Shown here: positions 255-56,543 of the stretch, one piece after another | Numbering within the stretch: the first letter of the stretch is position 1 | Layout of the letters: every line of letters starts with the position of its first letter | Assembly (NCBI GenBank): GCA_964542645.1 | Contig: CAZIUG010000008.1 | Span: 17,848-81,847 of the forward strand | Reading direction: 5' to 3' | Length of the DNA: 64,000 nt | Origin: an uncultured Opitutales bacterium | GTDB lineage: Bacteria > Verrucomicrobiota > Verrucomicrobiia > Opitutales > UBA2987 | The notes under the pieces: model-generated | Databases searched by the model: none | Seen by the model: only the letters and a program-made list of their open reading frames with translations | Told to the model about the DNA's origin: nothing | Translations under genes and position numbers: made by a program

Positions 255-1433
255 ATGAAAATCAAGTCAATAGAAGCATTTGAAGTCGATCTTTCAAGAG
301 GCCGAATAGACAGTACAGGGGAAAAGAAACAGACTGGATCCTACAAAATGAAGGATCGAGAACCGGCGAGCCCCATGGAATCTTATCCAGCCTACCATGG
401 GAAACGTTCCTCATGGGGACCGAAATGGCAATCTATGGCATGTATTGCCACAGCAGAAGATGGAACATTTGGAATTGGGTTATCAAACAATTCCGGTCCC
501 GTAGTACGGATCGTTAATGATCATTTTGCCTCCCACATTGTGGGCGGAGACTGCATGGCAACAGAAAAAGCGTTCGACATGCTCTGTCGTCTCGCTACCC
601 CCTACGGGGCCTACGGACTAAGCAGCTTTGCAATCAGTGCGGTTGATCTGGCTTTATGGGATCTAAAGGGCAAACTTCTCGAACGTCCCGTTTATGAACT
701 TCTAGGTGGCCCGCAGAAGGAGTCAATCCCGTGTTATGCAACGGGATTTGATCTTGAATGGTATATTGAGCTCGGCTTTCGCGCTGTAAAACTTCCTATG
801 CCGTTTGGACCCATGGATGGTCTAGACGGTCTAAAAAAGACGGAGGAATTGGTTGCAATAGCACGTCAACGCATTGGAGACAAAATCGAGTTAATGCTCG
901 ATTGCTGGATGGCTTTGGACGTGGAATATACTGTACGGCTGGCAGAGATCCTTAAACCATATCGCTTGAAATGGATTGAGGACTTTCTTCTACCTGAAGA
1001 TATGGAGGGTTTCGCTCGTGTGCGAGAACGCATACCTTGGCAGACTCTTGCAACTGGCGAGCATTGGTACCTGCCCCAGACTTTTTACACTGCAATGCGT
1101 CGAGGACTGGTTGATGTTTTTCAGCCGGATCTTCTCTGGTCAGGGGGAATTTCAGCGTGTGTACACATATGTCATATGGCCCGCTCAGCAGGTGTTTCGG
1201 TGATCCCTCATGGAGGCATGAATTGGCCATATGGGCAACACTTAGCATACGCCATGCCCGCAGTTCCCTTGGGAGAGCGATCAGGTGGAGTTTCCTCTCC
1301 GGGGGTAAAACTCGAAAATGTTGTGGCCATACCGGGAACCGCAGTCGTAAGAGGCGGTAATTTAATCCCTAGCGATGCCCCAGGGTTTGGGATCGAAGTG
1401 AATAAAAAGTGGTTAGATGCGATCTCGATTTAA
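255..1433 (+). CDS. Enolase-superfamily (mandelate racemase subgroup) dehydratase, L-rhamnonate dehydratase-like
   Basis: AISAVDLALWDLKGK, KLP motif (RhamD has KMP), metal ligands MLDCWM / WIEDF / TGEH, QPD and IPHGG. Overall similar to RhamD. Confidence 0.85.
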   Translation: MKIKSIEAFEVDLSRGRIDSTGEKKQTGSYKMKDREPASPMESYPAYHGKRSSWGPKWQSMACIATAEDGTFGIGLSNNSGPVVRIVNDHFASHIVGGDCMATEKAFDMLCRLATPYGAYGLSSFAISAVDLALWDLKGKLLERPVYELLGGPQKESIPCYATGFDLEWYIELGFRAVKLPMPFGPMDGLDGLKKTEELVAIARQRIGDKIELMLDCWMALDVEYTVRLAEILKPYRLKWIEDFLLPEDMEGFARVRERIPWQTLATGEHWYLPQTFYTAMRRGLVDVFQPDLLWSGGISACVHICHMARSAGVSVIPHGGMNWPYGQHLAYAMPAVPLGERSGGVSSPGVKLENVVAIPGTAVVRGGNLIPSDAPGFGIEVNKKWLDAISI

Positions 1434-1511
1434 TAAAGATTAAACGCCTCTAAACAGAAAACAAGACGTTAGATTCCTTCCAAGAAATCCGCTGGGTTTT
1501 TATTTTAAAAG

Positions 1512-2312
1512 TTAACCTTCGACCCAGTGCCGAAACAATCTTTTGGTGGCTTTCGGTAGATCATCATAGACATTACGCGGCACCAAGGGCTGGTCGTTTT
1601 CCATCGCCCCTGGTTCCTCCACCATCATTTCTCGTTCTTCCGATCCCGGTGCCAACACCCGTGTATTTAACCACCAAGGAGCATAGCGGATGACAACAGA
1701 TGCCCGTGACTCGTCCGAATAATTCGACGCTGTAGAATGCCAAATTCGACTATCCAACACAAGGACACTTCCAGCCTCACCTACAGCATGCATCTCCGTA
1801 GGATAAGGGGCCTCAGGATCGACACCAATGTTATCTGTGGGATTGCTCGGCCAACGGTGGCTTCCTGGAACGATCAGAGTGCCTCCGTTGTCCTTCGTGA
1901 ATGGAGAGAGCATCCACAAGGTCGTCAGATGCATAATCACGTCCGGATAGGGTGCAGAAATATGGCCAGCGTTGTTTTGATTAAAAGGCCAATCAGCATG
2001 CCATCTTCCACGGGGATTACCGGGATGATTGATAGTGGCAGTAATAAAAGAGACCTTCAGATATCGTCCTAACAAAGCTTCCAGAAGAACCATCAACTTC
2101 GGATCGGAAAGATAAGGGGAAAGCGACTGATCGTAGCGAATAAATCCAGGCACCTGTCCGATTCCTAATTTCGCAGCTTTGGCTCGCCCATGCTCAGCAG
2201 CGGATTGACAGACCTGATTCCGAATCGCATCTATCCTACCAGCTGGAATAACTCTAGGAACCACACTCCACCCATCGCGATGGATTCGATCTATGTGTTC
2301 CTGAATATTCAT
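1512..2312 (-). CDS. Phytanoyl-CoA dioxygenase (PhyH) family Fe(II)/2OG dioxygenase
   Basis: WHAD...NGGTLIVPGSH...IWHS facial triad and a downstream Arg. The ORF extends to 2360; the ATG at 2312 is preferred. Confidence 0.88.
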   Translation of the reverse strand: MNIQEHIDRIHRDGWSVVPRVIPAGRIDAIRNQVCQSAAEHGRAKAAKLGIGQVPGFIRYDQSLSPYLSDPKLMVLLEALLGRYLKVSFITATINHPGNPRGRWHADWPFNQNNAGHISAPYPDVIMHLTTLWMLSPFTKDNGGTLIVPGSHRWPSNPTDNIGVDPEAPYPTEMHAVGEAGSVLVLDSRIWHSTASNYSDESRASVVIRYAPWWLNTRVLAPGSEEREMMVEEPGAMENDQPLVPRNVYDDLPKATKRLFRHWVEG

Positions 2313-2679
2313 TGTTTCTTCATGACTGCTTTCAAATTCAAAAGCCTGAAGCGGTTTCATAAGTAGTTGTAAAGTGGCCTATTCATCTTCCACGATCTAG
2401 ATTAGATGGGCAGCAACTAAAACCAAAATACTCTAAACTAAGACAGTTTAATTTTACCATAAAAATTTGGCGAAAAACAAAAATCAAGGGGAATTAATAC
2501 TGCGCTAACAGCCCATCGCCACTACATGCCAGATGGAACTTTAACTTAGCCTGCAACTATTTAAATCAGCTCATCATGGAGTAGCTGAATTGTTTTTGAA
2601 TGATAACAAAATTAGTTTGAAAGTGTTCAGTAACTATCAAATTTTTGAGCAATAGGTCTTTTTGACGAATTCCATCTGT

Positions 2680-3450
2680 ATGACTTTAAATAATTCCAGA
2701 TCATCTCTAAATCGGCCCGAATCCTTCATTACTATTGCCCACCGTGGAGGTCTTGTCCCCGAATATCCTGAAAACACTATGATGGCCTTCCGTAAGACCA
2801 TTGAGACTGGGGCTGAAGTAATCGAAATTGACCTCCGGTCAACCAAAGATGCAGAAATCGTCGTTCTCCACGACTCAACCCTTAACCGAACAACCAGCGG
2901 CTCAGGTCCAATTACAGGAAAAACCCTGGCTGAAGTCAAAGATTTGGATGCAGGTGGAGGCGAGCAGGTACCCACACTCCAAGAAGTATTGGAGTTGATT
3001 GCAGGAACTGACATACAACTCCTACTTGATTTAAAGATCACCTCGCACCGAGAAGTCTGCAGGATCGTAAAACAAATAGAAAATCAGAGGTTAACCCTGA
3101 ACGTTATTCTAGCTACCAGATCGATAGACGAACTTGAAACCATTAAAAACTTAAACCCTAACCTTCGTACCTTGGGATTCATTCCTAACCAGAAAAGCAT
3201 TAAGATCTTTGCTGAAAAGGGAATCGACATCATAAGATTATTCCCAGATTGGATTCATAAGGATTCCACTCTGATTAATAGTACCCACACACTGGGTCGA
3301 CCCGTCTGGGCAATGTCGCTAACGGAAACCAAAGAAGCACTTGAAAAGTTGCTGCGTTACGGCGTTAACGGCGTCTTCACCGACTATCCGAAAATGGTTT
3401 CTGGATTGCGGCAAGAATTAAGGCAGAGTAGCCAAAATACTTTGGCATGA
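2680..3450 (+). CDS. Glycerophosphodiester phosphodiesterase (GDPD) family
   Basis: IAHRGG, PENTMMAF, IEIDL, VVLHD, GVNGVFTDYP. The ORF track starts at TTG 2662; the ATG at 2680 is preferred. Confidence 0.9.
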   Translation: MTLNNSRSSLNRPESFITIAHRGGLVPEYPENTMMAFRKTIETGAEVIEIDLRSTKDAEIVVLHDSTLNRTTSGSGPITGKTLAEVKDLDAGGGEQVPTLQEVLELIAGTDIQLLLDLKITSHREVCRIVKQIENQRLTLNVILATRSIDELETIKNLNPNLRTLGFIPNQKSIKIFAEKGIDIIRLFPDWIHKDSTLINSTHTLGRPVWAMSLTETKEALEKLLRYGVNGVFTDYPKMVSGLRQELRQSSQNTLA

Positions 3451-3467: not shown

Positions 3468-4157
3468 CTATTGAGGCTTTCGAACATACCAGGATGGTAT
3501 TGGCAAATCCTCACAGAGGCAAACCGACTCCTTCTTCCTCGAAAAGAACTCGTCAACCGCCTTCTTCGCTCCGGGCCAATTCGGTGAGCCGTAATCGTCA
3601 AAGACAAAGACGCCTCCCGGCACGAGAGTATGGTAGAGAAGCTCGAGGCATTGTCCGTATGACACATATAAGTCACAGTCAAGATGGATGAAACAAAACT
3701 GTTCATTTGAGAACCGTTGAAGGGTTTCCGAAAAAAACCCCTTCACAATTTGCCCATTGACATTAAAGGATTCGGAAAATCGCTCTAATCGAGCAGGCGT
3801 ATCCTGACATAAACGATATTTTCGTCGAACTCGGCTCAGAATCCAATGAGTTCCTAGGTCAATCCTCCCCACCTTCTTCTTTGGAAAGCCTTCAAAACTG
3901 TCACACGCATAGATCCTCTTACCAGGGGAGGTTTCAGCCACAGCCCGACAGATCATTTGAAATGAATTACCTCGGTACACCCCGCATTCGATTACATCTC
4001 CCGGAAGATGGAGAGTCGATTCTAGCAAACTAATCATCGAGTCTTTTCGGCCTGCTTGGAGTAGAATCTCCCAATACGAAGATCGCCCGTATTCCGATTG
4101 GAGTAATCGGTCTACCCTTCGATCATTCTCCAACTTTCTTTTATCGTGTCTCCTCAC
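3468..4157 (-). CDS. TylF/MycF/NovP-family SAM-dependent O-methyltransferase
   Basis: GDVIECGVYRGNS, CDSFEGFP, HLDCDLY, LVPGGVFVFDDY. Confidence 0.85.
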   Translation of the reverse strand: MRRHDKRKLENDRRVDRLLQSEYGRSSYWEILLQAGRKDSMISLLESTLHLPGDVIECGVYRGNSFQMICRAVAETSPGKRIYACDSFEGFPKKKVGRIDLGTHWILSRVRRKYRLCQDTPARLERFSESFNVNGQIVKGFFSETLQRFSNEQFCFIHLDCDLYVSYGQCLELLYHTLVPGGVFVFDDYGSPNWPGAKKAVDEFFSRKKESVCLCEDLPIPSWYVRKPQ

Positions 4158-4368: not shown

Positions 4369-7218
4369 ATGAAAAAATCGAATCTGTTCGATGTAGACTA
4401 CAGAAGATTAGTCTCACGGGCCGACGTAATCTACCACAGCCCTGCAGAGGTATCCATCGAAGGAACCCCTATTGGCAACGGCTGCATGGGAACAACGGTT
4501 TGGACTACGCCAAGATCCATCCGATTCCAAATTAACCGTAACGATCTCTTTTCTTCAGACAGAAATCATGCTGGATCCCACGGATGTCCGGTTGACTATA
4601 GAGGTCCATGTTCCCGCCTTGAAGTTGATTTCGGTGAATCGATTTTCAATAAAGCAAAATCCTTTTGCCAACGCCTTTCCATCTACGACGCCAATTGCAC
4701 AATCGAAGGTGACGATGTTCGTGTCCAATGCTTCGTTTCCTCGGAACGGGACGTCTTAGTCCTAGAAGTCGAAGATCAGCGGTCAATACCCAAGGATATT
4801 ACGGTCACAATATCGATGTGGCGGCCACCGAAAGTGATAACACCGCTTTATCTTTGGCCTTCAAACACTTGGGTGTCCGAAGAAATTGATACAGGAACTC
4901 ACACTGCACGGTACCAATTCAGCGAATTGGAAGACATAATCCTCGTAGAACAAAATTTTCATGAGACTCGGAAGTTTCGTAATGAAGAGTACAACGGGGG
5001 ATCTTCAGTTGCCCTCCACGTAGGAGGAGGTGAAACCCGAATCGAAAACCCTGAAAAAGCAACCTGGCAATCGGATGATTTGCAATGGGATGAGAAACCG
5101 CTTCATGCCAAATTCCAACGTAAAAGAATTACTGAGGGTATACCTCAGGCCCGCTCCATAGTAGCAGCCTCAGGCCAGGGGAAAAGGACGATCCTTGTTT
5201 CAACCACAGCCTCAAACAGAAAGGAAGACGCTCTCAGTAAACGTTGCCTGTTAGAGCTTCATAACACAAAGATACGTTCCTATAACTCCCTTCGTGTTGA
5301 GCATACTAGGTGGTGGCATAATTTTTGGTCCCGTACATTTGTCCATATCACAAGCCAAGATGGCTTAGCTGATTTCATGGAACGAATTCGGGTATTACAT
5401 CTCTACTACTCAGCATCTTCATCCCGCGGCGATGTGCCTGTTCCTCAGGGAGCCGGTTTGATTTTTCAAACTGAGGGTGACATTCCACATCTCGGTACAC
5501 AACTCTGGCATTGGATCGTCGAGTCGATGTACCGCCCTCTTTTTGCCGCCGACGCAATGGACATTACAGATCCATATTTTAATATGTATTTAAAGCAATT
5601 ACCTCTCTGCGAAAAAGCAGCCCAACAGCGTTGGGGTGTCGCTGGGGGAGCATATTTTCCTGAGACTTCTCCAGTTGATGGACCTACCCACCTCCCCGAT
5701 GAAAACAGCGAAGAGTTCCGGAATTACTTCCTCGGTCGTACCAGAAGCGACACTTTATCTCCTCCGACCTTAGCCCTTTGTCAGCACGATTCACACCTCC
5801 ACAATATCTGCAAACACCATCGCGATAGTGAATCCCCTGGGGCAAATCCATATTGTTCTATTGGCCATATTGCTTCTACTGGGAGTAAGATTGCTCTCCA
5901 GGCCTGGTGGCGTTACCGTTGCACCGGGAACACCCACTGGCTTCGTGATAAGGGCTATCCTCTTCTTCGTGGGACAGTTGAATTCTATCGGCACCTGATA
6001 AAAAAAGGAACAGATGGACGGTACCATTTAGAAGGTACCAATGTTATGGAATCTTTCTTTCTCGTGAAAGACAGCCTCAAGGATTTAGCTGCAATACGCG
6101 GCACTTTTCCGCCCGCGATACGAGCTTCCATAATTCTTAACGAGGACGCAGATCTGCGTTCTGAATGGCAGGACATAATCGATAACCTAGCACCATTCCC
6201 AATGGGCCACGAGACGGAATCGAAAGCACTGACTTGGGGAACACTGAATGAAAACGTCTGGGCAGCTGGGCACTTTGACGGAGTTAATATCAACAGCCGC
6301 CATTACCCATATGAAGACATATGGGCCCATCCGATTGAGACCTTTGAAGCATGGACTATGGAGAACAACGATCCGGACAAAGATAGGATTGTACAACTTC
6401 TCATCGACTTATGCCCCAATCACCTGAAGATTATGTCTGGGAGACATTGGCTTCCATCTCTAGTCCGTACGCCGATTGCCTTTGCCATGGCGGGACGTGG
6501 AGAGGATTTACCCGCGATTCTTGCAGCTAATTTTTACGTTTACAGGCCGCACCTCGCTAACGGACTCAGTACATTTGAACAGGGTATACAGTCAATGGGC
6601 CTTGAGCATTCTGGCTTGATTACAATGACCCTTCAGATTGGCCTAATGCAAAGTATCTCACCGACACCAGGGGAACCTGAGATTATTAATGTCTTTCCTG
6701 CATGGCCACGAGAATGGGACGCTTCCTTCAGCTTACTCGCAAGGGGGGGATTCCTAGTTACGTCATCAATCCGTGGAGGCGTGATTGAATTCATTCAGAT
6801 TGAGTCCCGTTTCGGCGAGACTTGCCGACTACGCAACCCATGGAATAAACCGTGTCGAGTGTCAGAGGGTAAAAACCTGGGAGGGGAAAACCCAACAGAC
6901 AATCTCGAAGGAGAAATTCTCCTTTTTGAGACCAAGGAAGGTGAACTTTATGAGGTATCACCAATTAACGAACCAACACCTAAAACGAGAACCATTTCTC
7001 CCGAAAAAACTAATCACCCATATCATTACTCTTTCAAGCTTCCAAGTGGTGTATCCGTTGGGGGCAAAATTGGCCGAGGGAAAGATGAGCCTTCCAAGGG
7101 CCTTGGGGCGTATGTTACAGGAAATCGTAGATTTCGAATCGAACAGGAAATCGTCACCGAAATTGCTGATTCGTTCAACATAGACAGATATGAGCATTCA
7201 AATAACTCGCAAAGATAA
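4369..7218 (+). CDS. Large glycoside hydrolase-like protein, GH95/six-hairpin glycosidase-like
   Basis: N-terminal GTPIGNG motif, central YPLLRGTVEFY helix region, C-terminal VFPAWP...FSLLARGGFLVT...CRLRNPW. No signal peptide. Confidence 0.65.
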   Translation: MKKSNLFDVDYRRLVSRADVIYHSPAEVSIEGTPIGNGCMGTTVWTTPRSIRFQINRNDLFSSDRNHAGSHGCPVDYRGPCSRLEVDFGESIFNKAKSFCQRLSIYDANCTIEGDDVRVQCFVSSERDVLVLEVEDQRSIPKDITVTISMWRPPKVITPLYLWPSNTWVSEEIDTGTHTARYQFSELEDIILVEQNFHETRKFRNEEYNGGSSVALHVGGGETRIENPEKATWQSDDLQWDEKPLHAKFQRKRITEGIPQARSIVAASGQGKRTILVSTTASNRKEDALSKRCLLELHNTKIRSYNSLRVEHTRWWHNFWSRTFVHITSQDGLADFMERIRVLHLYYSASSSRGDVPVPQGAGLIFQTEGDIPHLGTQLWHWIVESMYRPLFAADAMDITDPYFNMYLKQLPLCEKAAQQRWGVAGGAYFPETSPVDGPTHLPDENSEEFRNYFLGRTRSDTLSPPTLALCQHDSHLHNICKHHRDSESPGANPYCSIGHIASTGSKIALQAWWRYRCTGNTHWLRDKGYPLLRGTVEFYRHLIKKGTDGRYHLEGTNVMESFFLVKDSLKDLAAIRGTFPPAIRASIILNEDADLRSEWQDIIDNLAPFPMGHETESKALTWGTLNENVWAAGHFDGVNINSRHYPYEDIWAHPIETFEAWTMENNDPDKDRIVQLLIDLCPNHLKIMSGRHWLPSLVRTPIAFAMAGRGEDLPAILAANFYVYRPHLANGLSTFEQGIQSMGLEHSGLITMTLQIGLMQSISPTPGEPEIINVFPAWPREWDASFSLLARGGFLVTSSIRGGVIEFIQIESRFGETCRLRNPWNKPCRVSEGKNLGGENPTDNLEGEILLFETKEGELYEVSPINEPTPKTRTISPEKTNHPYHYSFKLPSGVSVGGKIGRGKDEPSKGLGAYVTGNRRFRIEQEIVTEIADSFNIDRYEHSNNSQR

Positions 7219-7226: not shown

Positions 7227-8324
7227 ATGAAAAAATATCGCGCCTCCGTTATCGGACTCGGCTGGATGGGAATGCTATACGATTTGGCTCCGCGCTCAAA
7301 AAAGCGCTTTCATATAGATGATGTCAATCGCCCGACCCCTACTCTCGATATCCACCGACACACTCATCACCGCATTCGTCCCAATAGAGAAGGAAATCCA
7401 ACCTCATATTGCGATGCCCTCCACAATTGCCCTAAAGTAGAGCTCATAAGCGCCGCCGATAGGGATCCAAAACGACTCAAGATTTTTACCCAACGATATG
7501 GAATAGACGCTACTTACACTAATGCCGAGCAAATGCTAAAGGAGCTCAAGCCGGAAATCGTCGCGGTGGCAACAAACACTAAGCATCGAGCAGATTTGAC
7601 GTGTTTGGCAGTCGAATGCGGAGCTAAAGCCATCATGACCGAGAAGCCCATGGCCCACACTCTAGAGGAAGTCGACCGAATGGTTAATACCTGCTCAGAA
7701 GCCTGCGTTCCGCTGAGTTGTGGCTCCATCAGCACTACCCACGCCTCCTTCGAAATAGCAAAGAGACTTCTTAGTAACGGTCATATTGGAAAATTGTTGT
7801 CCATCGAAACTGGCAACGTTTTTGCACAACACCAGAACTGGTCATACTTCCTAGATAAATTGCCCGAATGGGTGGTTGGAATCGGCGATGAACATCGCCG
7901 GGAGAGCGGTAGCAATGAATTCGTTGGCCAAGGATTTGCTTGGAGCAATGATTTTGCAGTTCATTTCCGAAAAGGTTCTAGCGGCGTCAGGATTACAGGC
8001 GATACAGGTGAATTGGTATTTGATTTTGAAAATGGTTGGAGGTTGTGGAAAGATGTCCAGACGGATAACAACACTCAAGGGAGAGCGCAACTTCCTTGGC
8101 CGAAGCCGAACTTCAATGTTCCCTACGGCGCTGTTTATTGCCTCGACGATCTACTTCGGTGTTTAGCCGGGGAACTCGACGAACCTAAAAATTCTGGGCG
8201 CCGTGTCGGAATCGCAATCGAAGTAGAACTCGCACTTAAGGAATCTTCTACTCAAGGCGGAACTCGCATAGATCTTCCCCTTCAAAACCGAGACCTGGGG
8301 CTGCACTATGATTGGTTCAGATGA
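7227..8324 (+). CDS. Gfo/Idh/MocA family oxidoreductase
   Basis: VIGLGWMG Rossmann motif and EKP motif. Starts 8 nt after the GH95-like gene. Confidence 0.85.
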   Translation: MKKYRASVIGLGWMGMLYDLAPRSKKRFHIDDVNRPTPTLDIHRHTHHRIRPNREGNPTSYCDALHNCPKVELISAADRDPKRLKIFTQRYGIDATYTNAEQMLKELKPEIVAVATNTKHRADLTCLAVECGAKAIMTEKPMAHTLEEVDRMVNTCSEACVPLSCGSISTTHASFEIAKRLLSNGHIGKLLSIETGNVFAQHQNWSYFLDKLPEWVVGIGDEHRRESGSNEFVGQGFAWSNDFAVHFRKGSSGVRITGDTGELVFDFENGWRLWKDVQTDNNTQGRAQLPWPKPNFNVPYGAVYCLDDLLRCLAGELDEPKNSGRRVGIAIEVELALKESSTQGGTRIDLPLQNRDLGLHYDWFR

Positions 8325-35208: not shown

Positions 35209-35249
35209 TCTGCTCTACCCGAACATTCTCAACTTGCTTCGTATTCTCT

Positions 35250-46704: not shown

Positions 46705-47829
46705 ATGAAGATTACAAGTGTTAGCACAGCTCTTCTCGAGCCAATGCCTTGGGTTTTGGTAAAAGTTCGAACCGATGAAGGCCTCATCGGGATAGGAGAA
46801 GCATATCACGGAGCAGGAGTACACCAGATCGCAGTAGACCATAGGTTGATGCGCCCTCTTATTGGTCAAGATCCTCGCAATGTAGATAAACTGTTTCGTG
46901 ATATGCGCAATGCCATGTCTGCATCGGGGTTCTATCAGGGTGCGGTCATGAGTGCCATTAGCGGAATCGAGATGGCCCTATGGGATATTACTGGTCAGTC
47001 GTTTGGAGTACCTATATGGCAGTTGTTAGGCGGCAAATTCCGCGACCGAATTCGTGTCTATAATGATTGCCATGAAGGTGAGGACAATACACCAGAGTCG
47101 TGGGCTGAGAAAGCAAAAGCAGTGGAGGCTCGGGGCTTTGACGCCATCAAATTTGATATAGACCCCCAACCGACGCAAAGGGACAAGTATAATCGGGGCA
47201 TTAGCAACGAGAATATCGATTTTTTTGTCAATGCAGTAGCCACAATCCGTGAAGCGCTTCATCCGAATACCGATCTCCTTATCGACGCTCATTGGTTCTA
47301 CTCCCCCTCAGACATTCTTAAAGTAGCCCAGGGTCTTGAATCTTTAAATCTTCTTTGGCTCGAAGACCCCATTCCTCCGGAAAACATCGATGTTATGGCG
47401 ATGGTAACCCGAAGCACCTCCCTTCCCATCTGTACAGGCGAAAACTTCTATACGGCACACGGATTCCGTGACCTTATTGAGAAACAAGCTTCAGACATTA
47501 TTTCACCAGATCTAGCTAAATCGGGAGGATTGCTAGAAGGCCGAAAAATAGCTGATTTAGCCAACCTTTATTACATCCCATACTCACCCCATAATATCTC
47601 TGGCCCGATTGGGACAGTAGCTGCATGCCATGTCTGCGCTGCAGTTGAGAATTTTCAGGTTTTGGAATTCCATCACCTTGATAATGAGCTGTGGAACGGG
47701 CTGACCGTAGAACAAAACCTAATCATAGACGGACACATCACGATCCCGGAAAGGCCCGGTCTTGGCGTCACACTGAACGAAAATGTGGCCCGTGAGGCAT
47801 GCAAGGAAGATTTAGGATTCTTTGAGTAA
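46705..47829 (+). CDS. Enolase-superfamily dehydratase (galactonate/gluconate dehydratase-like)
   Basis: AISGIEMALWDITG, KFD, LIDAH / WLEDP / TGEN, SPD, SPHN, RPGLG. Confidence 0.88.
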   Translation: MKITSVSTALLEPMPWVLVKVRTDEGLIGIGEAYHGAGVHQIAVDHRLMRPLIGQDPRNVDKLFRDMRNAMSASGFYQGAVMSAISGIEMALWDITGQSFGVPIWQLLGGKFRDRIRVYNDCHEGEDNTPESWAEKAKAVEARGFDAIKFDIDPQPTQRDKYNRGISNENIDFFVNAVATIREALHPNTDLLIDAHWFYSPSDILKVAQGLESLNLLWLEDPIPPENIDVMAMVTRSTSLPICTGENFYTAHGFRDLIEKQASDIISPDLAKSGGLLEGRKIADLANLYYIPYSPHNISGPIGTVAACHVCAAVENFQVLEFHHLDNELWNGLTVEQNLIIDGHITIPERPGLGVTLNENVAREACKEDLGFFE

Positions 47830-48089: not shown

Positions 48090-49178
48090 CTATGGACCCC
48101 AAGTTTCCTTCAGCAATCTGATCCAGTTCCCCGATAGAATCCCTTGGATGTCAGATTCCGCAAATCCACGTCGCTTCATTTCTGGTACCAGTTTCTGGAG
48201 ATCCGCAATTGTATCTAAATCTCTAGGGGACTGCTCCTGCCCGTATCCACCATCCAGGTCTGTACCTATAGCAGCATGCCGAGCGTTGCCGGCTAATTGG
48301 CATACATGCTCGATGTGATCAACTACTGTGGCGAGGGTCGCATCCGTTGTTTGCTGAGAAGCAGGAAGATCTGGATTCCAATTCGGGTCTAACATCCATG
48401 CATCGAAAGCTGTACCTACAACTCCTCCTCGCTCAATGATCACCTGAATCATTTCGTCGGTTAATTGTCGCTGCCCCGGAGTCAAGGATCGGCAATTATG
48501 GTGGCTCGCTCCAACAGGCCCATCATAGACCTCTATTATATCCCAAAAAGCCTGATCTGTAGTGTGGGTTAAATCGACAATAATGCCCGCCTCCCTCAAG
48601 GCAGTTAGTAGATCCCGTCCTCGAGGAAGGAGCCCACCCTCGGTTCCAGTTCCATGACAATAAGAACTCACCCCATAGTGGGAGAGGCTTACAATTCTCA
48701 AACCCCGATCATACCAGAGAGGGACTTGATCCACATCGAGAATGGGATCCGCACTCTCCATAGCCAAAACCAGCCCTATAGGAGAATCGGGAGCCGGATT
48801 ACTCCAGGTCTCGACAATGGCATTGATGTCATCCGTTGAAGTGATGAACCGGAGTATCCCTTCCTTCTCCATTGCCCTGTAGTAAGCGTAATGCCCAGAC
48901 CCAACCCCGTAGCATTGAGACTGATCATACATACCGGTTCCAGATAAACGGTCCCTAGGATCAAGGCGGGACATTACGGTTCCAAAAATGATACCTACAT
49001 TTCCACGACGCAGATCAGGGAAAGCAACAGTACAAGAACCGAACTGCTCCCGCACCCCCTCCATGTCATGAGTCCTTACGGTTCTCGACGGCATCGTCAG
49101 GTCCCGATTCACCTGAATAGCACTAAACCCTAGGTCTAAATGGCTATCGACGATTAGATAAGGGTTTTGTCCTGTCAT
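48090..49178 (-). CDS. Membrane dipeptidase (peptidase M19) family amidohydrolase
   Basis: VDSHLD, MESAD, DLTH, ASHHNCR, GTDLDG. Confidence 0.88.
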   Translation of the reverse strand: MTGQNPYLIVDSHLDLGFSAIQVNRDLTMPSRTVRTHDMEGVREQFGSCTVAFPDLRRGNVGIIFGTVMSRLDPRDRLSGTGMYDQSQCYGVGSGHYAYYRAMEKEGILRFITSTDDINAIVETWSNPAPDSPIGLVLAMESADPILDVDQVPLWYDRGLRIVSLSHYGVSSYCHGTGTEGGLLPRGRDLLTALREAGIIVDLTHTTDQAFWDIIEVYDGPVGASHHNCRSLTPGQRQLTDEMIQVIIERGGVVGTAFDAWMLDPNWNPDLPASQQTTDATLATVVDHIEHVCQLAGNARHAAIGTDLDGGYGQEQSPRDLDTIADLQKLVPEMKRRGFAESDIQGILSGNWIRLLKETWGP

Positions 49179-49287: not shown

Positions 49288-50433
49288 TTAAGTCCAAATC
49301 TCCCGAAAAAACCTTACCAAATTCCCATTAGCAAATTTTTCAACCTGTTCCTCGCCGTACCCAGCATTACGCATAATCTCCAGAAAATCCTGCAGGTCAT
49401 CAATCGTATTAAAATCTGTTGGTGAAAGCTCGAGGCCAAACCCACCATCCAGATCAGTTCCAAAAGCAATACAATCTGTATTGCCCACCAAATCGCAAAT
49501 ATGGTCGATGTGTTCTATTACAGCTCTCATCGGGCGAGTAGCAGTAGGATAATGAGTCTTACGATCCTCAAAATTCCATTTTGGACTTAAAGTGCCTTCC
49601 GCAAACATTAGACCAATCACACCCCCGCGTTCGGTAAGGGCTTTAATCATATCATCACTCAGGTGTCTCTGACCCGGGACCAAAGCTCGACAATTACAGT
49701 GGCTAGCATGAACTGGCCCTTCCCAGTAGTCGAGGATCTGCCAAAAACACTGGTCTGAGGCGTGGGTCAGGTCTATAGCTATATTGGTCTCCTTAAGAGC
49801 ATCCATCATAGCATACGCAGGGGGAAAGAGCCCCCCTTCCGTCCCCGTCCCGTGGCCATAAGTGTTTACCCCGAAATGAGTGAGTGTAACTGAACGAAGC
49901 CCAGCTTCCCACCAAAATGAAACATCGTCAGGACCAAAGATTGGATCAGCGCTTTCCATCGTAAGGATCAAACCCACTGGAGTATCATCCGCAGGATCTC
50001 TCCACGAAGCCACACAGCTGTCAAGATCAGCTCGATCTTTAATGAAAACGATCTCCCCAGCCCTTTCTAGGGCTTGGTAATATGCCAAATGCGAGACACC
50101 TCGGGCATGGGCCACGGCTTGGGTTCGAACTGAATTATGGCTATAAAGGTCCGGATTTTGCACCCTTGCCATAATAGTAGAAAGCATGATTCCAACCCGG
50201 CCCTCACGCATATCTGGGAGCGCCACAGTAGGAGTATACCATCTTCGAACCGGCCCTTTGCGACGCAGAAGGTCCTGTGGTGAAAGCTCTGGAATTTGCG
50301 AATTCCCTCCTCCATAGGGATCTTCACGCTCCCTAAGCACTTTAACTGGCTGGGTAAGGTCCCGTCTGTAAAACAGCGCGTTGAAGGCCATATCGAGATG
50401 GCCATCGACAATGAGTATGGGTTCGGGAGACAT
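49288..50433 (-). CDS. Membrane dipeptidase (peptidase M19) family amidohydrolase, tandem paralog
   Basis: VDGHLD, MESAD, DLTH, ASHCNCR, GTDLDG. Confidence 0.88.
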   Translation of the reverse strand: MSPEPILIVDGHLDMAFNALFYRRDLTQPVKVLREREDPYGGGNSQIPELSPQDLLRRKGPVRRWYTPTVALPDMREGRVGIMLSTIMARVQNPDLYSHNSVRTQAVAHARGVSHLAYYQALERAGEIVFIKDRADLDSCVASWRDPADDTPVGLILTMESADPIFGPDDVSFWWEAGLRSVTLTHFGVNTYGHGTGTEGGLFPPAYAMMDALKETNIAIDLTHASDQCFWQILDYWEGPVHASHCNCRALVPGQRHLSDDMIKALTERGGVIGLMFAEGTLSPKWNFEDRKTHYPTATRPMRAVIEHIDHICDLVGNTDCIAFGTDLDGGFGLELSPTDFNTIDDLQDFLEIMRNAGYGEEQVEKFANGNLVRFFREIWT

Positions 50434-50777: not shown

Positions 50778-51842
50778 TCACAGTATTTCCAAACCTGGAA
50801 CGGGTGCCTCCTCATCAATCAATCTCTCATTTTTCAATTCAGCCCAAAAATCCGATGGAATATCCTCCTCCAGTAATTCCGTATTGGCTTTAACTTCTAA
50901 GGCAGTACGCCCTCCGGGTATAACACTAGCAACGGCAGGATGCGCCAAAGGAAACTGAAGAGCCGCAGCCGGCAACCTTACTCCATACCTCTCACAAACT
51001 CTCTGGATCTTCGATACCTTCTGAAGAATGTGAGGGGGAGCAGCCGAATAATTGTAATAAGCTCCCTCGACTGCACCTGTTACCAAAATCCCGGAGTTAT
51101 ATGGTCCCCCAATCACGATTTGAACTCCCTTCCTCTCGCAATCTGACAACAAACCACGCAATGAATCCTGCTCTAGCAATGTATAGCGCCCTGCAAGAAG
51201 AAAACAGTCGAAGTCTCCTGCTCGAGCAAAATCAGCCAACATTTGCCACTGATTCATCCCCACCCCGATTGCTTTTACTACTCCCTGGGAACGTAACTCA
51301 TCGAGTACCTTGTAGGCACCATTCATCGCCTCCTTAAAATGGCTGGATACATATGGATTGAGATCGGGTTTCAGGCTGACCCCTTCGTCAGGATCGTGAA
51401 TATAAACGATATCCAATCGATCAGTCTTCAACCGCTCCATGCTTGCATCCAGAGATTTTTTTACGGCCTCCGCAGAATAGTCGAAGACGGCTTTGAACGG
51501 AGGATGGTCAATGAAAAACTGATCTGAGTTTGGAATCTTCGGATTTAGGGGATCGTTTTCTTGGAGCGGAATAAGCGAATAACCTACCTTCGTAGAGATA
51601 GCGAATTCGTCTCGCTTAAACCGTGAAAAATTAGCTCCATACCGTTGTTCGCTTAGGCCATAACCATAAAGAGGTGCGGTATCAAAGTAGCGGATTCCAA
51701 GGGAATGAGCGGTAACTAAACAATCCGTAACATCTGACTCCGCTACGGTTGCAAACAGATTCCCAAACGGTGCTCCCCCGAAGCCCATACAAGTTATTTC
51801 TAGGCCATGAATACCAACTTCCTGTCGTTTCCCTACTTTCAT
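50778..51842 (-). CDS. Aldo/keto reductase, D-threo-aldose/L-fucose/pyridoxal dehydrogenase-like
   Basis: GFGGAPFGN, GIRYFDTAPLYGYGLSE, STKVG, IHDPD, FLLAGRYTLL. Confidence 0.88.
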   Translation of the reverse strand: MKVGKRQEVGIHGLEITCMGFGGAPFGNLFATVAESDVTDCLVTAHSLGIRYFDTAPLYGYGLSEQRYGANFSRFKRDEFAISTKVGYSLIPLQENDPLNPKIPNSDQFFIDHPPFKAVFDYSAEAVKKSLDASMERLKTDRLDIVYIHDPDEGVSLKPDLNPYVSSHFKEAMNGAYKVLDELRSQGVVKAIGVGMNQWQMLADFARAGDFDCFLLAGRYTLLEQDSLRGLLSDCERKGVQIVIGGPYNSGILVTGAVEGAYYNYSAAPPHILQKVSKIQRVCERYGVRLPAAALQFPLAHPAVASVIPGGRTALEVKANTELLEEDIPSDFWAELKNERLIDEEAPVPGLEIL

Positions 51843-52386: not shown

Positions 52387-53442
52387 ATGATGCGCATATC
52401 TGTATCCAACGATCCCGAGCTCTCTGAAAACTACCTTCGCAAAATGGTACAGCTAGGAGTCGATTGTATCGACTTCGGAGACGGTGCCTGGTTTCCCGGT
52501 GTCGCCGAACAAGGTTATCCAGATTTCGATGAATTAATAAAGATCCGCCGTAAGCTGCGATCCTGGGGGATGGATTGGAACCGCGCTACTTTACCCGACA
52601 TAACAGAAGATTTTTTTCTGGATCGAGAGGGCGCCGATCGAGAACTTGAGAACAGTATTAATGCTCTAAAAGTTTTCGCTGAAGCTGGAGTTCCTATCGC
52701 TCGCCAACGTTGCGAAGGGGACACATTCAACCATTTATTGCGGTTTAATCGCCCGGCTCATCGCGGCGGTTATACAGGGCATGGGGCTACAATGCTTCAA
52801 GGCCACGCTCACAAAATTACAGATAGCGAGTTGCAGGCTCGGAGGGTCCACGTTTGGAATCCTACCGACACAAGTGCTCCCGATCCCGAGCAACTGGATA
52901 ATTGGTGGAAACATTTTTGCCTTGTCTACCAAGAACTCGTGCCAATCGCGGAGGAACACAATATAAGATTGGCCATGCACCCCAGTGATGTCCCTCTTCC
53001 TGAGACACCCTTCGGCTCCCTAGGATTTCACCGCATTATCGATGCTTTCCCAAGCAAACAAGTTGGTTATCTCTACTGTTGTGGTACACGAGCCGAAGCC
53101 GGAGGTCTACCTCTGATTCTAAATGAATTGAATAATTATGGACGCAAGGGACGGCTTTTTATGATCCACCTCCGTAACATTCGGGGATCATTGGCCACTG
53201 CCCAAGCCTACGAAGAAACAGCCCTAGATGATGGCGATATGAACATGTTCAAGATCATACTAGAACTAGACAAAGTGGGCTTCGATGGTTGTATCAATCC
53301 GGACCACATTCCCATTCTCGAAGGCGATTGGGAAGAGAATATGAATCCTTCCAGCAGACAGGTGGCACATCATGGTCTATCCTATGCTGTCGGCTATATC
53401 AAAGCACTGTTAGCTGCACTGGCGGTTTATAAGGGCACCTGA
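52387..53442 (+). CDS. Mannonate dehydratase (UxuA)-family protein, second paralog
   Basis: MHPSDVP, CCGT, IHLRN, DDGDMN, NPDHIP, GYIKAL. Confidence 0.8.
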   Translation: MMRISVSNDPELSENYLRKMVQLGVDCIDFGDGAWFPGVAEQGYPDFDELIKIRRKLRSWGMDWNRATLPDITEDFFLDREGADRELENSINALKVFAEAGVPIARQRCEGDTFNHLLRFNRPAHRGGYTGHGATMLQGHAHKITDSELQARRVHVWNPTDTSAPDPEQLDNWWKHFCLVYQELVPIAEEHNIRLAMHPSDVPLPETPFGSLGFHRIIDAFPSKQVGYLYCCGTRAEAGGLPLILNELNNYGRKGRLFMIHLRNIRGSLATAQAYEETALDDGDMNMFKIILELDKVGFDGCINPDHIPILEGDWEENMNPSSRQVAHHGLSYAVGYIKALLAALAVYKGT

Positions 53443-53504: not shown

Positions 53505-54308
53505 TTATCCTACCCTGATAATGTCCCGGTTTTGTGCCCAAATAGGATAGAGATCTAGAATTTTTCCGTCACCCGGTAGGGGTTTACCCAATGGTTGAGG
53601 TGGGACCTTAAACGGACCCCGGTTACCTGTGAGATCACTCAGCGTATATCGTAATCCTATAGAGCGCAATAGACGCACTGAGGGAATATTCCACTGAGCA
53701 GAACGAGCCAAAATCAACCCTTCACGATCTAAAATCCATCGACAGGCGGCACTCATAACGATTCGCCCCAAGCCACTAAGTCCTAATTTGGGAGCTACAT
53801 CTATGCCGATCTCGTAGACCGGACCTCCAAGAGGCCATACTGTCGTAAGTGCTACGAGCTTGTTATTCTCTATAATCCCAAAGTTCGCAGATGATCGCTT
53901 CCAATCGCAATGCCAGAATATCTCTGAATCGGCCATTCTAGAGACCTCCTCCTTAGACAGCAAAACCGCAATCTCCTTTTCGCAGGGCTTAAATGTCCCA
54001 GCATCTCCAAAGTAGTAAAAATTCGGACCAAATACGCTTACCCCATGAGGCAACGTAGCTCTAGACAGTTCGTAAGAGCCGAAAATCGAAAAAAGTTCGT
54101 CTTCAGAAAGACTATTTGTGATACTTCTTACTTCGTCAGACAATTTCTCTATCGTTCGTAACATCGACATCTTGCCGATGCGATAGGCCAGCAACGATTC
54201 AGGATAAGCTTCCGCGGGATATTCGAAAAATCCCGATTTAAGCGATCTCCCCATTTTTGAGACAAGCCATTCTTCAAGCCCTGTGAAGGCTGAGATCTCT
54301 TTTAACAT
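53505..54308 (-). CDS. GNAT family acetyltransferase-like protein
   Basis: C-terminal EIGIDVAP..GLSGLG (degenerate motif A) and NIPSVRLLRSIG (motif B). Confidence 0.65.
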   Translation of the reverse strand: MLKEISAFTGLEEWLVSKMGRSLKSGFFEYPAEAYPESLLAYRIGKMSMLRTIEKLSDEVRSITNSLSEDELFSIFGSYELSRATLPHGVSVFGPNFYYFGDAGTFKPCEKEIAVLLSKEEVSRMADSEIFWHCDWKRSSANFGIIENNKLVALTTVWPLGGPVYEIGIDVAPKLGLSGLGRIVMSAACRWILDREGLILARSAQWNIPSVRLLRSIGLRYTLSDLTGNRGPFKVPPQPLGKPLPGDGKILDLYPIWAQNRDIIRVG

Positions 54309-54395
54309 CCTGAGTTTCCAACTCTATAGAAAGGTCACAGCTGACAACTACCACAAATAGATGCCTGATATAGAGGACAAAAATACCAAGATTTT

Positions 54396-55163
54396 CTACT
54401 CATTTTTCGGACGCAAGTCAATATACCGCTCTCCGTGTTTCCCAGCTTTCCCGCGTACGAGATATACAGGTATGGGATGCTCATCCAGGTCCACCCAAGA
54501 GGTATCCGTACTACAGTAGCGAATTGTATATCCAGCTCGCCGTCGTCCCGTTCTGTTTTTTTCACTGCTATGGTATAAGAAGGAATCGTGAATAGACACG
54601 CTTCCTGCAGCCATCTCTAAAGTCACGGCGCACGCTTCCATTTCGGGGGAAACTACTATCTTTTTATTCAACATTTCATTCCCCACTGAGGGAACAGTAA
54701 CTTGTTCCTCGAAACCAACATGCGAGCCTGGAATTACCCTCATAGCCGAATTCTTTTTATTGGCATCATCTATGGCCATCCATACCGTAACAACCTTGGT
54801 GCCGTGCACACTTGGCCAATAATTATTATCCTGGTGCCAGGGTACTGTATCTACACTCTTCGGTGGTTTGATGAATACACTAGAATACACTAGAATCAGA
54901 TTCGGACCCAATACGGATTCTACTGCATCAAGTAGTCGCTGGTGTCGACAAATCTGCAGCCAACGATCATCACGAACATGCGGTTCACCCAAATAGTTAG
55001 GCCTATCTAGTTTACCGATACTGCTGAACCCACCGCAGCTAAGTCCGGCTACACTGGCTTCGTTCATAAGGATCTGATTCGACTTCACCTCCTCATCATT
55101 GAACACTCCCTTGAATAAACAGTATCCATCTATTGAAAAGTGCTTTGGATTTCGATTTAACAT
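54396..55163 (-). CDS. PhyH family dioxygenase
   Basis: VFIKPP, WHQD, MRVIPGSH, LYHSS, RRAGYTIRY. Confidence 0.9.
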   Translation of the reverse strand: MLNRNPKHFSIDGYCLFKGVFNDEEVKSNQILMNEASVAGLSCGGFSSIGKLDRPNYLGEPHVRDDRWLQICRHQRLLDAVESVLGPNLILVYSSVFIKPPKSVDTVPWHQDNNYWPSVHGTKVVTVWMAIDDANKKNSAMRVIPGSHVGFEEQVTVPSVGNEMLNKKIVVSPEMEACAVTLEMAAGSVSIHDSFLYHSSEKNRTGRRRAGYTIRYCSTDTSWVDLDEHPIPVYLVRGKAGKHGERYIDLRPKNE

Positions 55164-55580
55164 TCTAAGTTAATTTCTCACCGTTTTGTTCTACAGATTT
55201 TTATCAGGAGTCCAGGTAGTTCGCCCTACCCTAAAGTCAAGGAAAGAAAATTGAAACGCCGGATAACAAATCCGACAAAAGAGTTCATTCCTCGTTCCTG
55301 AGACTCATAGCCAAATAAGAGACTGGAAATCAGAGGGTCGATACTGATACACTGGAATGCAGCAGTGGAAAATGATCACGGTTACAAATCATTAAAGACA
55401 AAAGAAACATAAACCCAACTCCAATACTTTGTTAAGGTTGTGCAATATTAGAAACGCCTCAACTGATACCGCCTTTAATAAGTGATCCGGGCTCAAATCT
55501 CCACCCGTTAACGGATCTTCCTCAAATCCACAAATGAATACCCTAAATACCGGAATTAAGGGAATCCGTGATTTTTTTTG

Positions 55581-56543
55581 ATGGAGTACACAAGATTAGG
55601 AAGAACAGAACTTAAGGTCAGTGTAGCCGGACTTGGCTGCGGTGGGTTCAGTAGGATCGGACAGGGGACTGGAAAGAGCGATACCAATTCCATTTCGATT
55701 ATCAGAAAAGCACTTGATTTGGGGGTTAATTTTATTGATACGGCAGCGGCATACGGCACCGAATCATTAGTTGGCAGAGCGATCAAAGGATACGAACGGG
55801 ATGGACTTGTCCTTTCAACGAAAGCGGCAGTACACAAAGCCAATGAACTACAGTCTCCAGAAAAGTTGACGCTAAGCCTCGAACATTCACTTCAATCACT
55901 AGGAGTCGACTACGTTGACGTATTTCATCTACACGGAGTACGCCCGAAAGAATACGATTACGTATGCCAAACTCTCTTACCCTTTCTAATAAGACAGCAA
56001 GAAAAGGGAAAGTTCAAATTCCTCGGTATTACAGAAGTTCCTCCCGAAGATTCTGGGCACAGCACATTGGCACGCGCTGTAAAAACACAATTTTTTCCAG
56101 TAATTATGGTCGCTTTCCACATGCTGCACCAATCAGCCCGAAAACTGATATTCCCTACAACACGGAAAAAAAACATTGGCGTGCTTTGTATGTTTGCGGT
56201 CAGACTGCTGTTTAGTGAATCGGGGCGCCTTAAGCGCGTGGTTAGAAATCTGGCAGAAAAAGGGCAACTTCCTGTGGAATTCAAGAAGGACGCTGAACCG
56301 CTTGATTTCCTCATTCACGAAGCTGGTGCGCTATCTATAATCGACGCTGCCTATCGCTACTGCCGTCACTCAAATGGTCCCGATGTGGTCTTGTTCGGTA
56401 CAGGAAATGAGGATCATTTAAAAGCAAACATCGACTCGCTTCTCCGTCCCGCCCTTCCCGAATCAGATATAGCCAAATTGGAAGCCTTGTTCGGAGCTCT
56501 GACCAATATAGGACTCGATGCACCCGGAAAAGGTCAGCATTAG
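55581..56543 (+). CDS. Aldo/keto reductase
   Basis: LGRTELKVS, GVNFIDTAAAYGTE, LSTK, DVFHLH. Confidence 0.9.
   Translation: MEYTRLGRTELKVSVAGLGCGGFSRIGQGTGKSDTNSISIIRKALDLGVNFIDTAAAYGTESLVGRAIKGYERDGLVLSTKAAVHKANELQSPEKLTLSLEHSLQSLGVDYVDVFHLHGVRPKEYDYVCQTLLPFLIRQQEKGKFKFLGITEVPPEDSGHSTLARAVKTQFFPVIMVAFHMLHQSARKLIFPTTRKKNIGVLCMFAVRLLFSESGRLKRVVRNLAEKGQLPVEFKKDAEPLDFLIHEAGALSIIDAAYRYCRHSNGPDVVLFGTGNEDHLKANIDSLLRPALPESDIAKLEALFGALTNIGLDAPGKGQH

Follow-up and report, generated by a model that had tools for sequence, protein, structure and literature searches.

A conserved collection of divergent sugar- and acid-modifying enzyme genes in a Moanabacter-group Verrucomicrobium

A 64,000-nt stretch of DNA from an uncultured Opitutales bacterium (contig CAZIUG010000008.1; hereafter the window) is dominated by a collection of 46 genes, most of them for enzymes, that spans positions 255-56543. 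We consider it probable that this collection represents a chromosomal hot spot in a genome-wide expansion of catabolic paralogs in a pelagic, Moanabacter-group Verrucomicrobium. The stretch itself, more than 56 kb long and at least 60 kb when its left flank is counted, is packed with divergent genes for sugar- or acid-modifying enzymes, and is both real and conserved.

Gene content, lineage and local enrichment

A six-frame listing of the window yielded 52 long, non-overlapping open reading frames (ORFs), all of which were scanned against Pfam; 46 of these fall within 255-56543, and no ORF of at least 80 amino acids (aa) in that listing crossed either window end. The scans reproduced exactly the family counts of an initial annotation made from the sequence: 6 members of the enolase superfamily (MR_MLE_N plus MR_MLE_C), 7 PhyH, 4 GFO_IDH_MocA, 3 aldo/keto reductases (AKR; Aldo_ket_red), 2 UxuA/AP_endonuc_2, 2 Ldh_2, 2 Peptidase_M19 and 2 transporters of the major facilitator superfamily (MFS; MFS_1). 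Seven families account for 26 of the 46 genes. The collection also includes a glycerophosphodiester phosphodiesterase (GDPD), a TylF-type methyltransferase, a 949-aa protein resembling glycoside hydrolase (GH) family 95, a weak GHL10-like match, a GH32 enzyme, an amidase, MsrB and MsrA, ThuA, a triple-DUF5069 protein, an additional TIM-barrel protein, a short-chain dehydrogenase/reductase (SDR), a cupin, a GNAT protein and 4 proteins without a Pfam match. The earlier description of about 47 genes, almost all of them catabolic, was correct with respect to the dominance of enzymes but slightly generous in its "almost all": MsrA/MsrB, the TylF-type methyltransferase, GNAT and the 4 Pfam-less proteins are interspersed in the collection and fall outside a catabolic label. 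No tripartite ATP-independent periplasmic (TRAP) or ATP-binding cassette (ABC) sugar system was found among the Pfam-scanned collection proteins, which, together with the lack of a recognizable transcription factor and the presence of only two MFS genes, agrees with the initial annotation.

The layout was likewise as first described, with frequent changes of orientation (18 strand switches among the 46 genes) and AT-rich spacers (GC 0.376, compared to 0.477 for coding DNA). Median spacer length is 185 bp in the collection compared to 107 bp in the flank (P = 0.049), and only 16% of spacers are shorter than 50 bp; the longer spacers fit with stand-alone genes. Paralog pairs are 22-31% identical, the sole exception being the M19 pair at 43%, consistent with the initial view that they are too divergent to be recent duplicates. 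Neither a tRNA scan nor an Rfam search at the gathering threshold returned a match anywhere in the window.

The two ends of the collection differ in nature. To the left of the window lie the remainder of a flavin monooxygenase gene, whose 3' end forms the first 61 nt, and, further left, two GFO genes and one MR_MLE gene. The collection therefore reaches at least 5 kb past the left edge without its left end being reached, and the boundary at 255 is set by where the window happens to begin. Beyond ~56.5 kb come FabD, an ABC ATPase, an aminotransferase, GGT and Dtd, followed by IF-1, SOD and SRP54, and none of the 19 housekeeping-type genes on that side belongs to the families of the collection; here the boundary is genuine.

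SRP54, located 7 kb to the right, is 61-63% identical to its named relatives, all of which are Verrucomicrobiota/Puniceicoccales (Cerasicoccus, Coraliomargarita and Rubellicoccus). Among genomes, the central enolase gene (start 30774) finds its best match on a 2.13-Mb contig that bears the label Ca. Moanabacter sp. (L009) and shares gene order with the window. Exact copies of window proteins lie on a 728,907-bp metagenome scaffold (ENA ERZ23495038, LUOE20-1_SAMN05991696 scaffold_2), of which the window occupies positions 468,807-532,806, and on several shorter contigs from open-ocean samples. The GC content of the window, 46%, equals that of Ca. Moanabacter tarae, a pelagic member of the Opitutia with a genome of ~2.6-2.85 Mb and 46% GC (PMC6256433). 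From these comparisons, the DNA belongs to an open-ocean Verrucomicrobium with a small genome, which falls in or close to the genus Moanabacter (GTDB order Opitutales, family UBA2987). An origin in SAR202 (Chloroflexota) was rejected on the basis of the Puniceicoccales affinity of SRP54 and the Ca. Moanabacter label of the syntenic metagenome-assembled genome (MAG). Thus, the comparison with SAR202 drawn in the initial annotation does not hold for lineage, but does hold for the conceptual type of phenomenon.

According to the source data for Fig. 4a of Lim et al. 2023, M. tarae has 120 PF02746/PF13378 hits among 2,246 coding sequences (CDS), corresponding to ~60 enolase-superfamily genes, or 2.67% of CDS, and ranks 14 of 47,894 genomes (PMC10444878). 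It is the highest-ranked genome outside the Chloroflexota, although it is displayed only as 'Others' and the text of that paper is silent on it; marine Latescibacterota (UBA8231) and Poribacteria are also high in the enolase ranking (PMC10444878). In the collection, 6 of 46 genes (13%) encode enolase-superfamily proteins, ~5-fold the share in M. tarae, and the probability of finding at least 6 in 46 at a frequency of 2.67% is 0.0014. The genome-wide figure is that of M. tarae, the type species of the genus, while ~85 kb of the source genome was covered here. The collection is therefore a roughly five-fold local concentration within the enolase expansion of the genus. An equal density of these families throughout the genome and in relatives had been named at the outset as the result that would count against a distinct collection; M. 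tarae is indeed expanded genome-wide, but the window is ~5-fold denser. Partner families of the SAR202 type are represented in the window by 3 AKR and 1 SDR; no Amidohydro_2 or HpcH/DapA aldolase was found among the Pfam-scanned window proteins, and both are present in the syntenic regions of relatives.

Conservation, enzyme integrity and control

Gene order was compared with three sets of relatives. On L061, an 86.8-kb metagenome contig (GC 0.459), 20 genes are collinear with positions 29.9-51.8 kb of the window, at 87-96% nucleotide identity (~93%), with identical orientation and without any difference in gene order. In the Moanabacter-labelled MAG L009 (GC 0.55), 10 genes occur in the same order at 68-86% aa identity, with insertions of a sulfatase, two Amidohydro_2 genes, a peroxiredoxin, a glyoxalase and a PIN gene, and without MsrB. 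Contigs L058-L060 share part of the left flank, including a flanking monooxygenase that is 77% identical, and carry aldolases, a luciferase-like monooxygenase and insertion sequence (IS) elements. Compared to L061, dN/dS was 0.04-0.24 for each of the 20 genes, indicative of purifying selection, and both GC and GC at third codon positions (GC3) were uniform across the collection and the housekeeping flank. Since gene order is conserved in two relatives and 20 of 20 genes are under purifying selection, the arrangement is old and inherited, with gene-sized insertions and deletions, rather than the product of recent accretion. The suggestion that the collection accumulated gene by gene conflicts with this collinearity and with the uniform composition.

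Enolase 30774 looks to be the one clear case of transfer across phyla. Its product is 86% identical to that of L009, and it is 78-82% identical to proteins of ~35 Latescibacterota, Gemmatimonadota-labelled and Caldilineaceae MAGs with which no synteny is shared; these cross-phylum values far exceed the 61-63% identity of SRP54 within the organism's own order, a signature of horizontal transfer. The propeller protein encoded at 29880 and the flanking monooxygenase have named relatives that are ~60-64% identical in Chloroflexota, Poribacteria, Latescibacterota and Gemmatimonadetes. Around the shared enolase, Latescibacterota loci contain SDR, PhyH, Gfo and further enolase genes, along with several copies of the family to which the 526-aa protein of the window belongs.

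Divergence from L061 was locally raised at 33520-34671, which covers PhyH 33753 and both of its spacers, and at 29880-30590. The synonymous divergence (dS) of these genes was 0.48 (PhyH 33753) and 0.45 (29880), compared to 0.14-0.36 for the other genes, and the spacers of PhyH 33753 differed by 30-33%, suggesting that older alleles were introduced by recombination. Spacers 45835-46217, 47830-48089 and 30591-30773 contained indels of 292, 113 and 117 bp, respectively, relative to L061. In L058-L060, a relative with a 3.2-Mb contig, the syntenic left flank carries DDE transposases and a Transposase_29-like gene; L059 encodes a DruA domain fused to transposase domains, and one IS element was found in only some of these contigs.

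All six enolase-superfamily genes scored above gathering for both PF02746 and PF13378. In the alignment of the six, the Glu of the WxE motif and the β-2 Lys form invariant columns, while the other ligand positions (GE and the first ligand) align as Glu/Asp without being invariant; the first metal ligand is Glu in the 32224 protein and Asp in the other 5. Each of the six thus carries carboxylate metal ligands where barrel strands 3-5 end. The His/Asp acid-base residues vary between paralogs, suggesting that they catalyze different reactions. None of the six reached an NCBIfam equivalog (rhamnonate, galactonate, mannonate, fuconate dehydratase etc.), with best scores of 85-258 bits against cut-offs of 311-750, and the solved structures nearest to them are either rhamnonate dehydratases or entries from structural genomics that state no function. 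Indeed, none of 20 collection proteins scanned reached a curated NCBIfam cut-off, in accordance with the initial expectation that the substrates of many members may be undescribed. The seven PhyH genes all scored above the PF05721 cut-off; aligning all seven shows no variation in the HxD...H iron triad or in the Arg that binds 2-oxoglutarate, and the catalytic residues are thus intact in each. Signal peptides or hydrophobic N-termini were detected only in MsrA/MsrB, and all of the collection enzymes look cytoplasmic.

The 236-aa protein encoded at 29880 gave a confident five-bladed propeller model (predicted local distance difference test score, pLDDT, of 92), which in fold comparisons came closest to glutaminyl cyclases, Vgb lyase and strictosidine synthase; searching PDB sequences with a profile of this protein returned no match, and JGI names for its relatives are 'sugar lactone lactonase YvrE' or 'streptogramin lyase'. 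It may be a lactonase, which would complete a dehydrogenase-lactonase-dehydratase trio with its neighbors.

No helix-turn-helix or other DNA-binding Pfam domain was found among the 46 collection proteins, and no regulator was present among the recorded Pfam matches of the flanks and of the relatives' syntenic regions, where several called genes lack a match. Regulators are expected to make up 1-3% of genes in a genome of ~2,200 genes. At that share, the probability of finding none in 46 genes is 0.25-0.63, so that the absence of local regulators is unremarkable and the regulator-free aspect of the collection carries little weight. No words were shared among 45 spacers above shuffled expectation, gapped and degenerate motifs lying outside that search, and scans for sigma-70 promoters and intrinsic terminators gave counts equal to those of shuffled DNA and were uninformative for this lineage. 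Divergence from L061 is 0.18 at four-fold degenerate sites and 0.10-0.17 in most spacers. Clearly stronger conservation was seen in two of them, 31935-32223 (93.4% identical; divergence 0.066) and 43439-43878 (91.7% identical; divergence 0.083), compared to ~82% identity at four-fold sites. Neither contained a conserved ORF or an unusual RNA fold (z = -0.74 for the 440-bp spacer 43439-43878, which also returned no Rfam match at the E-value threshold), and we regard both as candidate cis-regulatory DNA. These two constrained spacers argue against the description of the collection as largely unregulated, which the missing local regulators do not establish.

Small spacer ORFs were considered as hidden regulators and rejected: five were scanned against Pfam without a credible match. 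Five spacer ORFs, two of which were also Pfam-scanned, were compared to L061; 3 were interrupted by stops, 1 lost its frame to a 4-nt gap, and substitutions in the five displayed no codon periodicity, indicating that they are non-coding. Among the unannotated proteins, only the 173-aa product of 18403 has a size typical of regulators; it showed no sign of DNA binding, and its single-sequence structure prediction was of low confidence (pLDDT 41).

Proposed working, known systems and rival explanations

In the working that we propose for the hot spot, a few MFS carriers would import small polar compounds. Algal and bacterial glycans may supply these as sugars (some of them decorated or O-methylated), as sugar acids and as certain nitrogen-containing acids. 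Since the enzymes lack signal peptides, they would act in the cytoplasm, where the glycosidases (GH95-like, GH32 and the GH130/117/32-like propeller) may trim small glycosides, the PhyH Fe/2-oxoglutarate dioxygenases hydroxylate or O-demethylate, the Gfo/Idh/MocA, AKR, SDR and Ldh_2 enzymes oxidize or reduce, and the enolase-superfamily and UxuA-like enzymes dehydrate or epimerize. Precedent for the dioxygenase step comes from PF05721 enzymes, one of them from Poribacteria, that O-demethylate a sugar hydroxyl of 2'-O-methyl nucleosides (PMC12709175). The outcome would be many short, parallel, non-phosphorylative routes, by analogy to those proposed for SAR202 group I, in which enolase, dehydrogenase and AKR paralogs are held to serve parallel non-phosphorylative breakdown of both sugars and sugar acids alongside many MFS transporters (PMC10444878, PMC6946804), a proposal that has been partly tested (PMC10444878). 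Nearly every gene stands alone behind its own ~185-bp spacer, and control, if any, would be exerted by distant regulators or constitutive promoters. The arrangement is vertically inherited and kept by purifying selection, while being remodelled by gene-sized indels and occasional transfer across phyla.

Several points weigh against this proposal. A complete pathway is not readable from the window, which lacks a 2-keto-3-deoxy-acid aldolase or kinase; amidohydrolase-type lactonases occur only in relatives, and the candidate lactonase folds most like glutaminyl cyclases rather than known lactonases. No member has a known substrate, and PhyH, M19, amidase and Ldh_2 proteins may act on amino-acid derivatives instead of sugars. 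MsrA/B, the methyltransferase and GNAT are misfits in a purely catabolic account, the genome-wide counts derive from M. tarae and not from the source genome, and the mode of expression is one that we infer.

The hot spot most closely resembles SAR202 group I (Ca. Lucifugimonas marina), with its expansions of enolase (COG4948), SDR and AKR in a marine oligotroph with a genome of ~2-3 Mb (PMC10444878, PMC6946804). Common to both are a large enolase-superfamily complement (~2.7% of CDS in the genus Moanabacter), AKR and SDR partners, deeply divergent and mostly unassignable paralogs, and MFS proteins as the visible uptake systems. In contrast, SAR202 belongs to the Chloroflexota rather than the Verrucomicrobiota; its co-abundant families are amidohydrolase lactonases and HpcH/DapA aldolases, whereas those found here are PhyH, Gfo/Idh/MocA, UxuA-like, Ldh_2 and M19; the SAR202 isolate has few counterparts of the cytoplasmic GH-like genes; and the paralogs found here, unlike those of SAR202, sit together in a conserved hot spot that measures at least 60 kb. 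Classical sugar-acid operons (dgoRKADT, uxuAB-uxuR, and garD/gudD with GntR/IclR/LacI) also combine enolase-superfamily or UxuA dehydratases with dehydrogenases, but the collection has no kinase, aldolase, local repressor (GntR/LacI/IclR/LysR-type) or dedicated acid-sugar transporter reaching its family cut-off, and its genes are monocistronic and scattered on both strands.

Paralog expansions are the leading genomic explanation for the use of diverse, dilute marine organic matter by SAR202, and the same strategy is now seen in a free-living Verrucomicrobium. Although paralog expansion of the SAR202 type was already known, the Verrucomicrobiota lineage is new; we found no literature linking PhyH and mandelate racemase with Verrucomicrobia or Latescibacteria. 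The PhyH and Gfo partners, the conserved hot spot and at least one member shared with Latescibacterota add to the SAR202 picture and suggest that the trait is either convergent or shared across phyla. The 46 intact genes under selection (selection was tested in 20) likewise provide a compact set for substrate discovery. A broader version, possible though rather doubtful, is that several enolase-rich marine lineages (the Moanabacter group, Latescibacterota UBA8231, Poribacteria, Caldilineaceae and SAR202) all take enolase, PhyH, Gfo and propeller genes from a single pool that circulates by horizontal exchange, and that the small-genome pelagic members keep these as stand-alone constitutive units in conserved hot spots. 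If true, this would constitute a regulation-light way to live on chemically diverse, dilute organic matter.

We questioned whether the collection might instead be a locus of the polysaccharide-utilization type (PUL), co-regulated by a distant extracytoplasmic function (ECF) sigma factor or two-component system and devoted to one complex glycan. Verrucomicrobiota are known glycan specialists whose carbohydrate-active enzyme (CAZyme)-sulfatase clusters (PMC8857213), like PULs, place GH-like genes beside downstream sugar enzymes; four CAZyme-like genes (GH95-like, GH32, the weak GHL10 match and the GH130/117/32-like propeller), a sulfatase in the syntenic region of L009 and two spacers conserved beyond neutral sites, compatible with cis-regulatory sites, are all in keeping with such a locus. 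Nevertheless, the CAZyme-like enzymes are not secreted, there is no TonB-dependent or SusCD-type transporter among the 52 window proteins, and the window has neither a sulfatase nor a hybrid two-component/ECF regulator. Moreover, the genes are not co-oriented, switching strand 18 times, no spacer word is shared beyond shuffles, and six enolases and seven PhyH that are 22-31% identical point to many substrates, making a PUL unlikely. Manufacture rather than degradation, with the enzymes building or tailoring a sugar-derived product (a glycoconjugate or natural product), is scarcely credible: the window has no glycosyltransferase, nucleotidyl-sugar enzyme, nonribosomal peptide or polyketide synthase (NRPS/PKS) or exporter gene, operon structure is absent, and six different dehydratase/epimerase paralogs are hard to fit to one product. 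In its favor, the biosynthesis of aminoglycosides and deoxysugars also employs TylF methyltransferases, GNAT, Gfo/Idh/MocA, PhyH and TIM-barrel epimerases. Saw et al. likewise offer biosynthesis as an alternative role for the SAR202 enolase paralogs (PMC6946804).

The remaining alternatives concern how the genes came together. A gathering of unrelated accessory genes in a permissive, recombination-prone region, with no functional meaning to their clustering, would explain the gene-sized indels that separate the window from L009 and L058-L060, the near-neutral rate of most spacers and their indels of 113-292 bp, the odd members (MsrA/B, methyltransferase, GNAT), and the fragmented GH95-like and shortened GFO genes in assemblies of the same population. 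This is distinctly unlikely given the marked bias in gene families (seven supply 26 of the 46 genes), an enolase enrichment that holds (P = 0.0014) even against an enolase-rich genome, purifying selection on every compared gene, and the similar mixes (MR_MLE, PhyH, GFO, SDR and the 526-aa family) found beside the shared enolase in Latescibacterota. Acquisition as a horizontally transferred island, in one or a few blocks from other phyla of the sea such as Latescibacterota, Poribacteria or Chloroflexota, is very improbable. Genomic islands do share with the collection an accessory-type load, gene-level variation between relatives and at least one gene common to several phyla; the non-syntenic 78-82% identity of enolase 30774 against 61-63% for the organism's own SRP54, the ~60-64% identical relatives of propeller 29880 and the monooxygenase in other phyla, and the IS elements in one relative's syntenic region could be read in the same way. 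However, GC and GC3 show no compositional shift between the collection and the housekeeping flank, the window contains no tRNA, integrase, transposase or flanking direct repeats, and order is kept in two relatives of unequal divergence. In addition, the neighbors of the shared enolase are unrelated in other phyla, indicating that single genes, not blocks, are shared. We therefore favor a hot spot inherited within the Moanabacter group.

Features of the window

Table 1. Genes and selected spacers of the collection, with the partial gene at the left window edge.
Positions	Strand	Feature
1..61	+	Flavin-monooxygenase-like 3' end (Pyr_redox_3; P0001)
255..1433	+	Enolase superfamily; nearest relatives in L-rhamnonate dehydratase subgroup, below curated cut-off
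1512..2360	-	PhyH Fe(II)/2-oxoglutarate dioxygenase
2662..3450	+	Glycerophosphodiester phosphodiesterase (GDPD)
3468..4157	-	TylF-type O-methyltransferase
4369..7218	+	GH95-like/DUF5703_N glycoside hydrolase, 949 aa, no signal peptide
7227..8324	+	Gfo/Idh/MocA oxidoreductase, starts 8 bp past GH95-like gene
8545..10143	+	532-aa protein, weak sub-cut-off GHL10 match only
10370..11296	+	Aldo/keto reductase
11530..12624	+	Gfo/Idh/MocA oxidoreductase
12810..14030	-	PhyH dioxygenase, 406 aa, divergent
14595..15812	+	MFS transporter, generic type
15851..16654	-	PhyH dioxygenase
16835..18259	-	Amidase-signature enzyme
18403..18924	-	173-aa protein, no known family
19101..20051	-	UxuA-like/xylose-isomerase-type TIM-barrel
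20083..21663	-	526-aa protein, putative distant member of five-bladed β-propeller glycosidase/phosphorylase superfamily (GH130/117/32/43-like)
21848..22936	+	Enolase superfamily
23228..24205	+	Gfo/Idh/MocA oxidoreductase
24399..26018	-	GH32 β-fructofuranosidase-type hydrolase, no signal peptide
26268..27467	-	MFS transporter, resembles oxalate/formate and monocarboxylate carriers
27674..28555	-	PhyH dioxygenase
28744..29799	-	Gfo/Idh/MocA oxidoreductase
29880..30590	-	236-aa predicted five-bladed β-propeller enzyme
30774..31934	-	Enolase superfamily, orthologs in other phyla
31935..32223	.	Divergent non-coding spacer between two enolase genes
32224..33519	+	Enolase superfamily; true start probably ~50 nt downstream (414-aa call on other contigs)
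33753..34547	+	PhyH dioxygenase
34672..35208	+	MsrB
35205..35849	+	MsrA, hydrophobic N-terminus
36104..36700	+	ThuA-like protein
36725..37864	-	Enolase superfamily
38268..38885	+	205-aa protein, no Pfam match; weak match to P-loop kinase-like structure
38949..39959	+	PhyH dioxygenase
40150..41451	-	Three tandem DUF5069 domains
41565..42368	-	Xylose-isomerase-like TIM-barrel (AP_endonuc_2)
42383..43438	-	Ldh_2 dehydrogenase
43439..43878	.	440-bp non-coding spacer
43879..45015	-	Ldh_2 dehydrogenase
45085..45834	+	Short-chain dehydrogenase/reductase
46218..46643	+	Cupin_2 protein
46705..47829	+	Enolase superfamily; closest solved structure 2qq6 (function unknown); dN/dS 0.036
48090..49178	-	M19 dipeptidase-like
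49288..50433	-	M19 dipeptidase-like, 43% identical to adjoining M19
50778..51842	-	Aldo/keto reductase
52387..53442	+	UxuA-like/TIM-barrel
53505..54308	-	GNAT acetyltransferase
54396..55163	-	PhyH dioxygenase, bears one arm of 42-nt inverted repeat
55578..56543	+	Aldo/keto reductase, last collection gene, bears second repeat arm

The 526-aa protein belongs to a large uncharacterized family (2,495 representative clusters) without Pfam coverage, whose profile weakly matches the five-bladed propeller glycosidases and phosphorylases of GH130, GH117, GH32 and GH43. Several Latescibacterota genomes (L013, L016, L011, L024 and L043) carry two or three copies of this family no more than 10 kb from the shared enolase. 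Full-length relatives of the triple-DUF5069 protein, 42-49% identical, occur on metagenome contigs with a GC of 0.39-0.61 (L062-L070), suggesting that this architecture is widespread. Three genes look different in further assemblies of this population: the GH95-like gene is broken up over three frames (L055 7192-10032), PhyH 1512 is in two pieces (L055 4335-5183) and Gfo 28744 is called 57 aa shorter (L001 12279-13163); these are either strain-level pseudogenes or assembly errors.

A 42-nt inverted repeat, complementary at 39 of 42 positions, has arms at 55015-55056 and 55619-55660, each within the 5' part of a coding sequence, those of the divergent genes for PhyH (54396-55163, -) and AKR (55578-56543, +). 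Both arms are read in the same codon phase and encode near-identical 14-residue peptides, SVAGLSCGGFSSIG and SVAGLGCGGFSRIG, and they flank a 562-nt promoter spacer in an inverton-like geometry that lacks an invertase. Inversion between the arms was rejected, as all 6 independent contigs that span the repeat share the orientation of the window.

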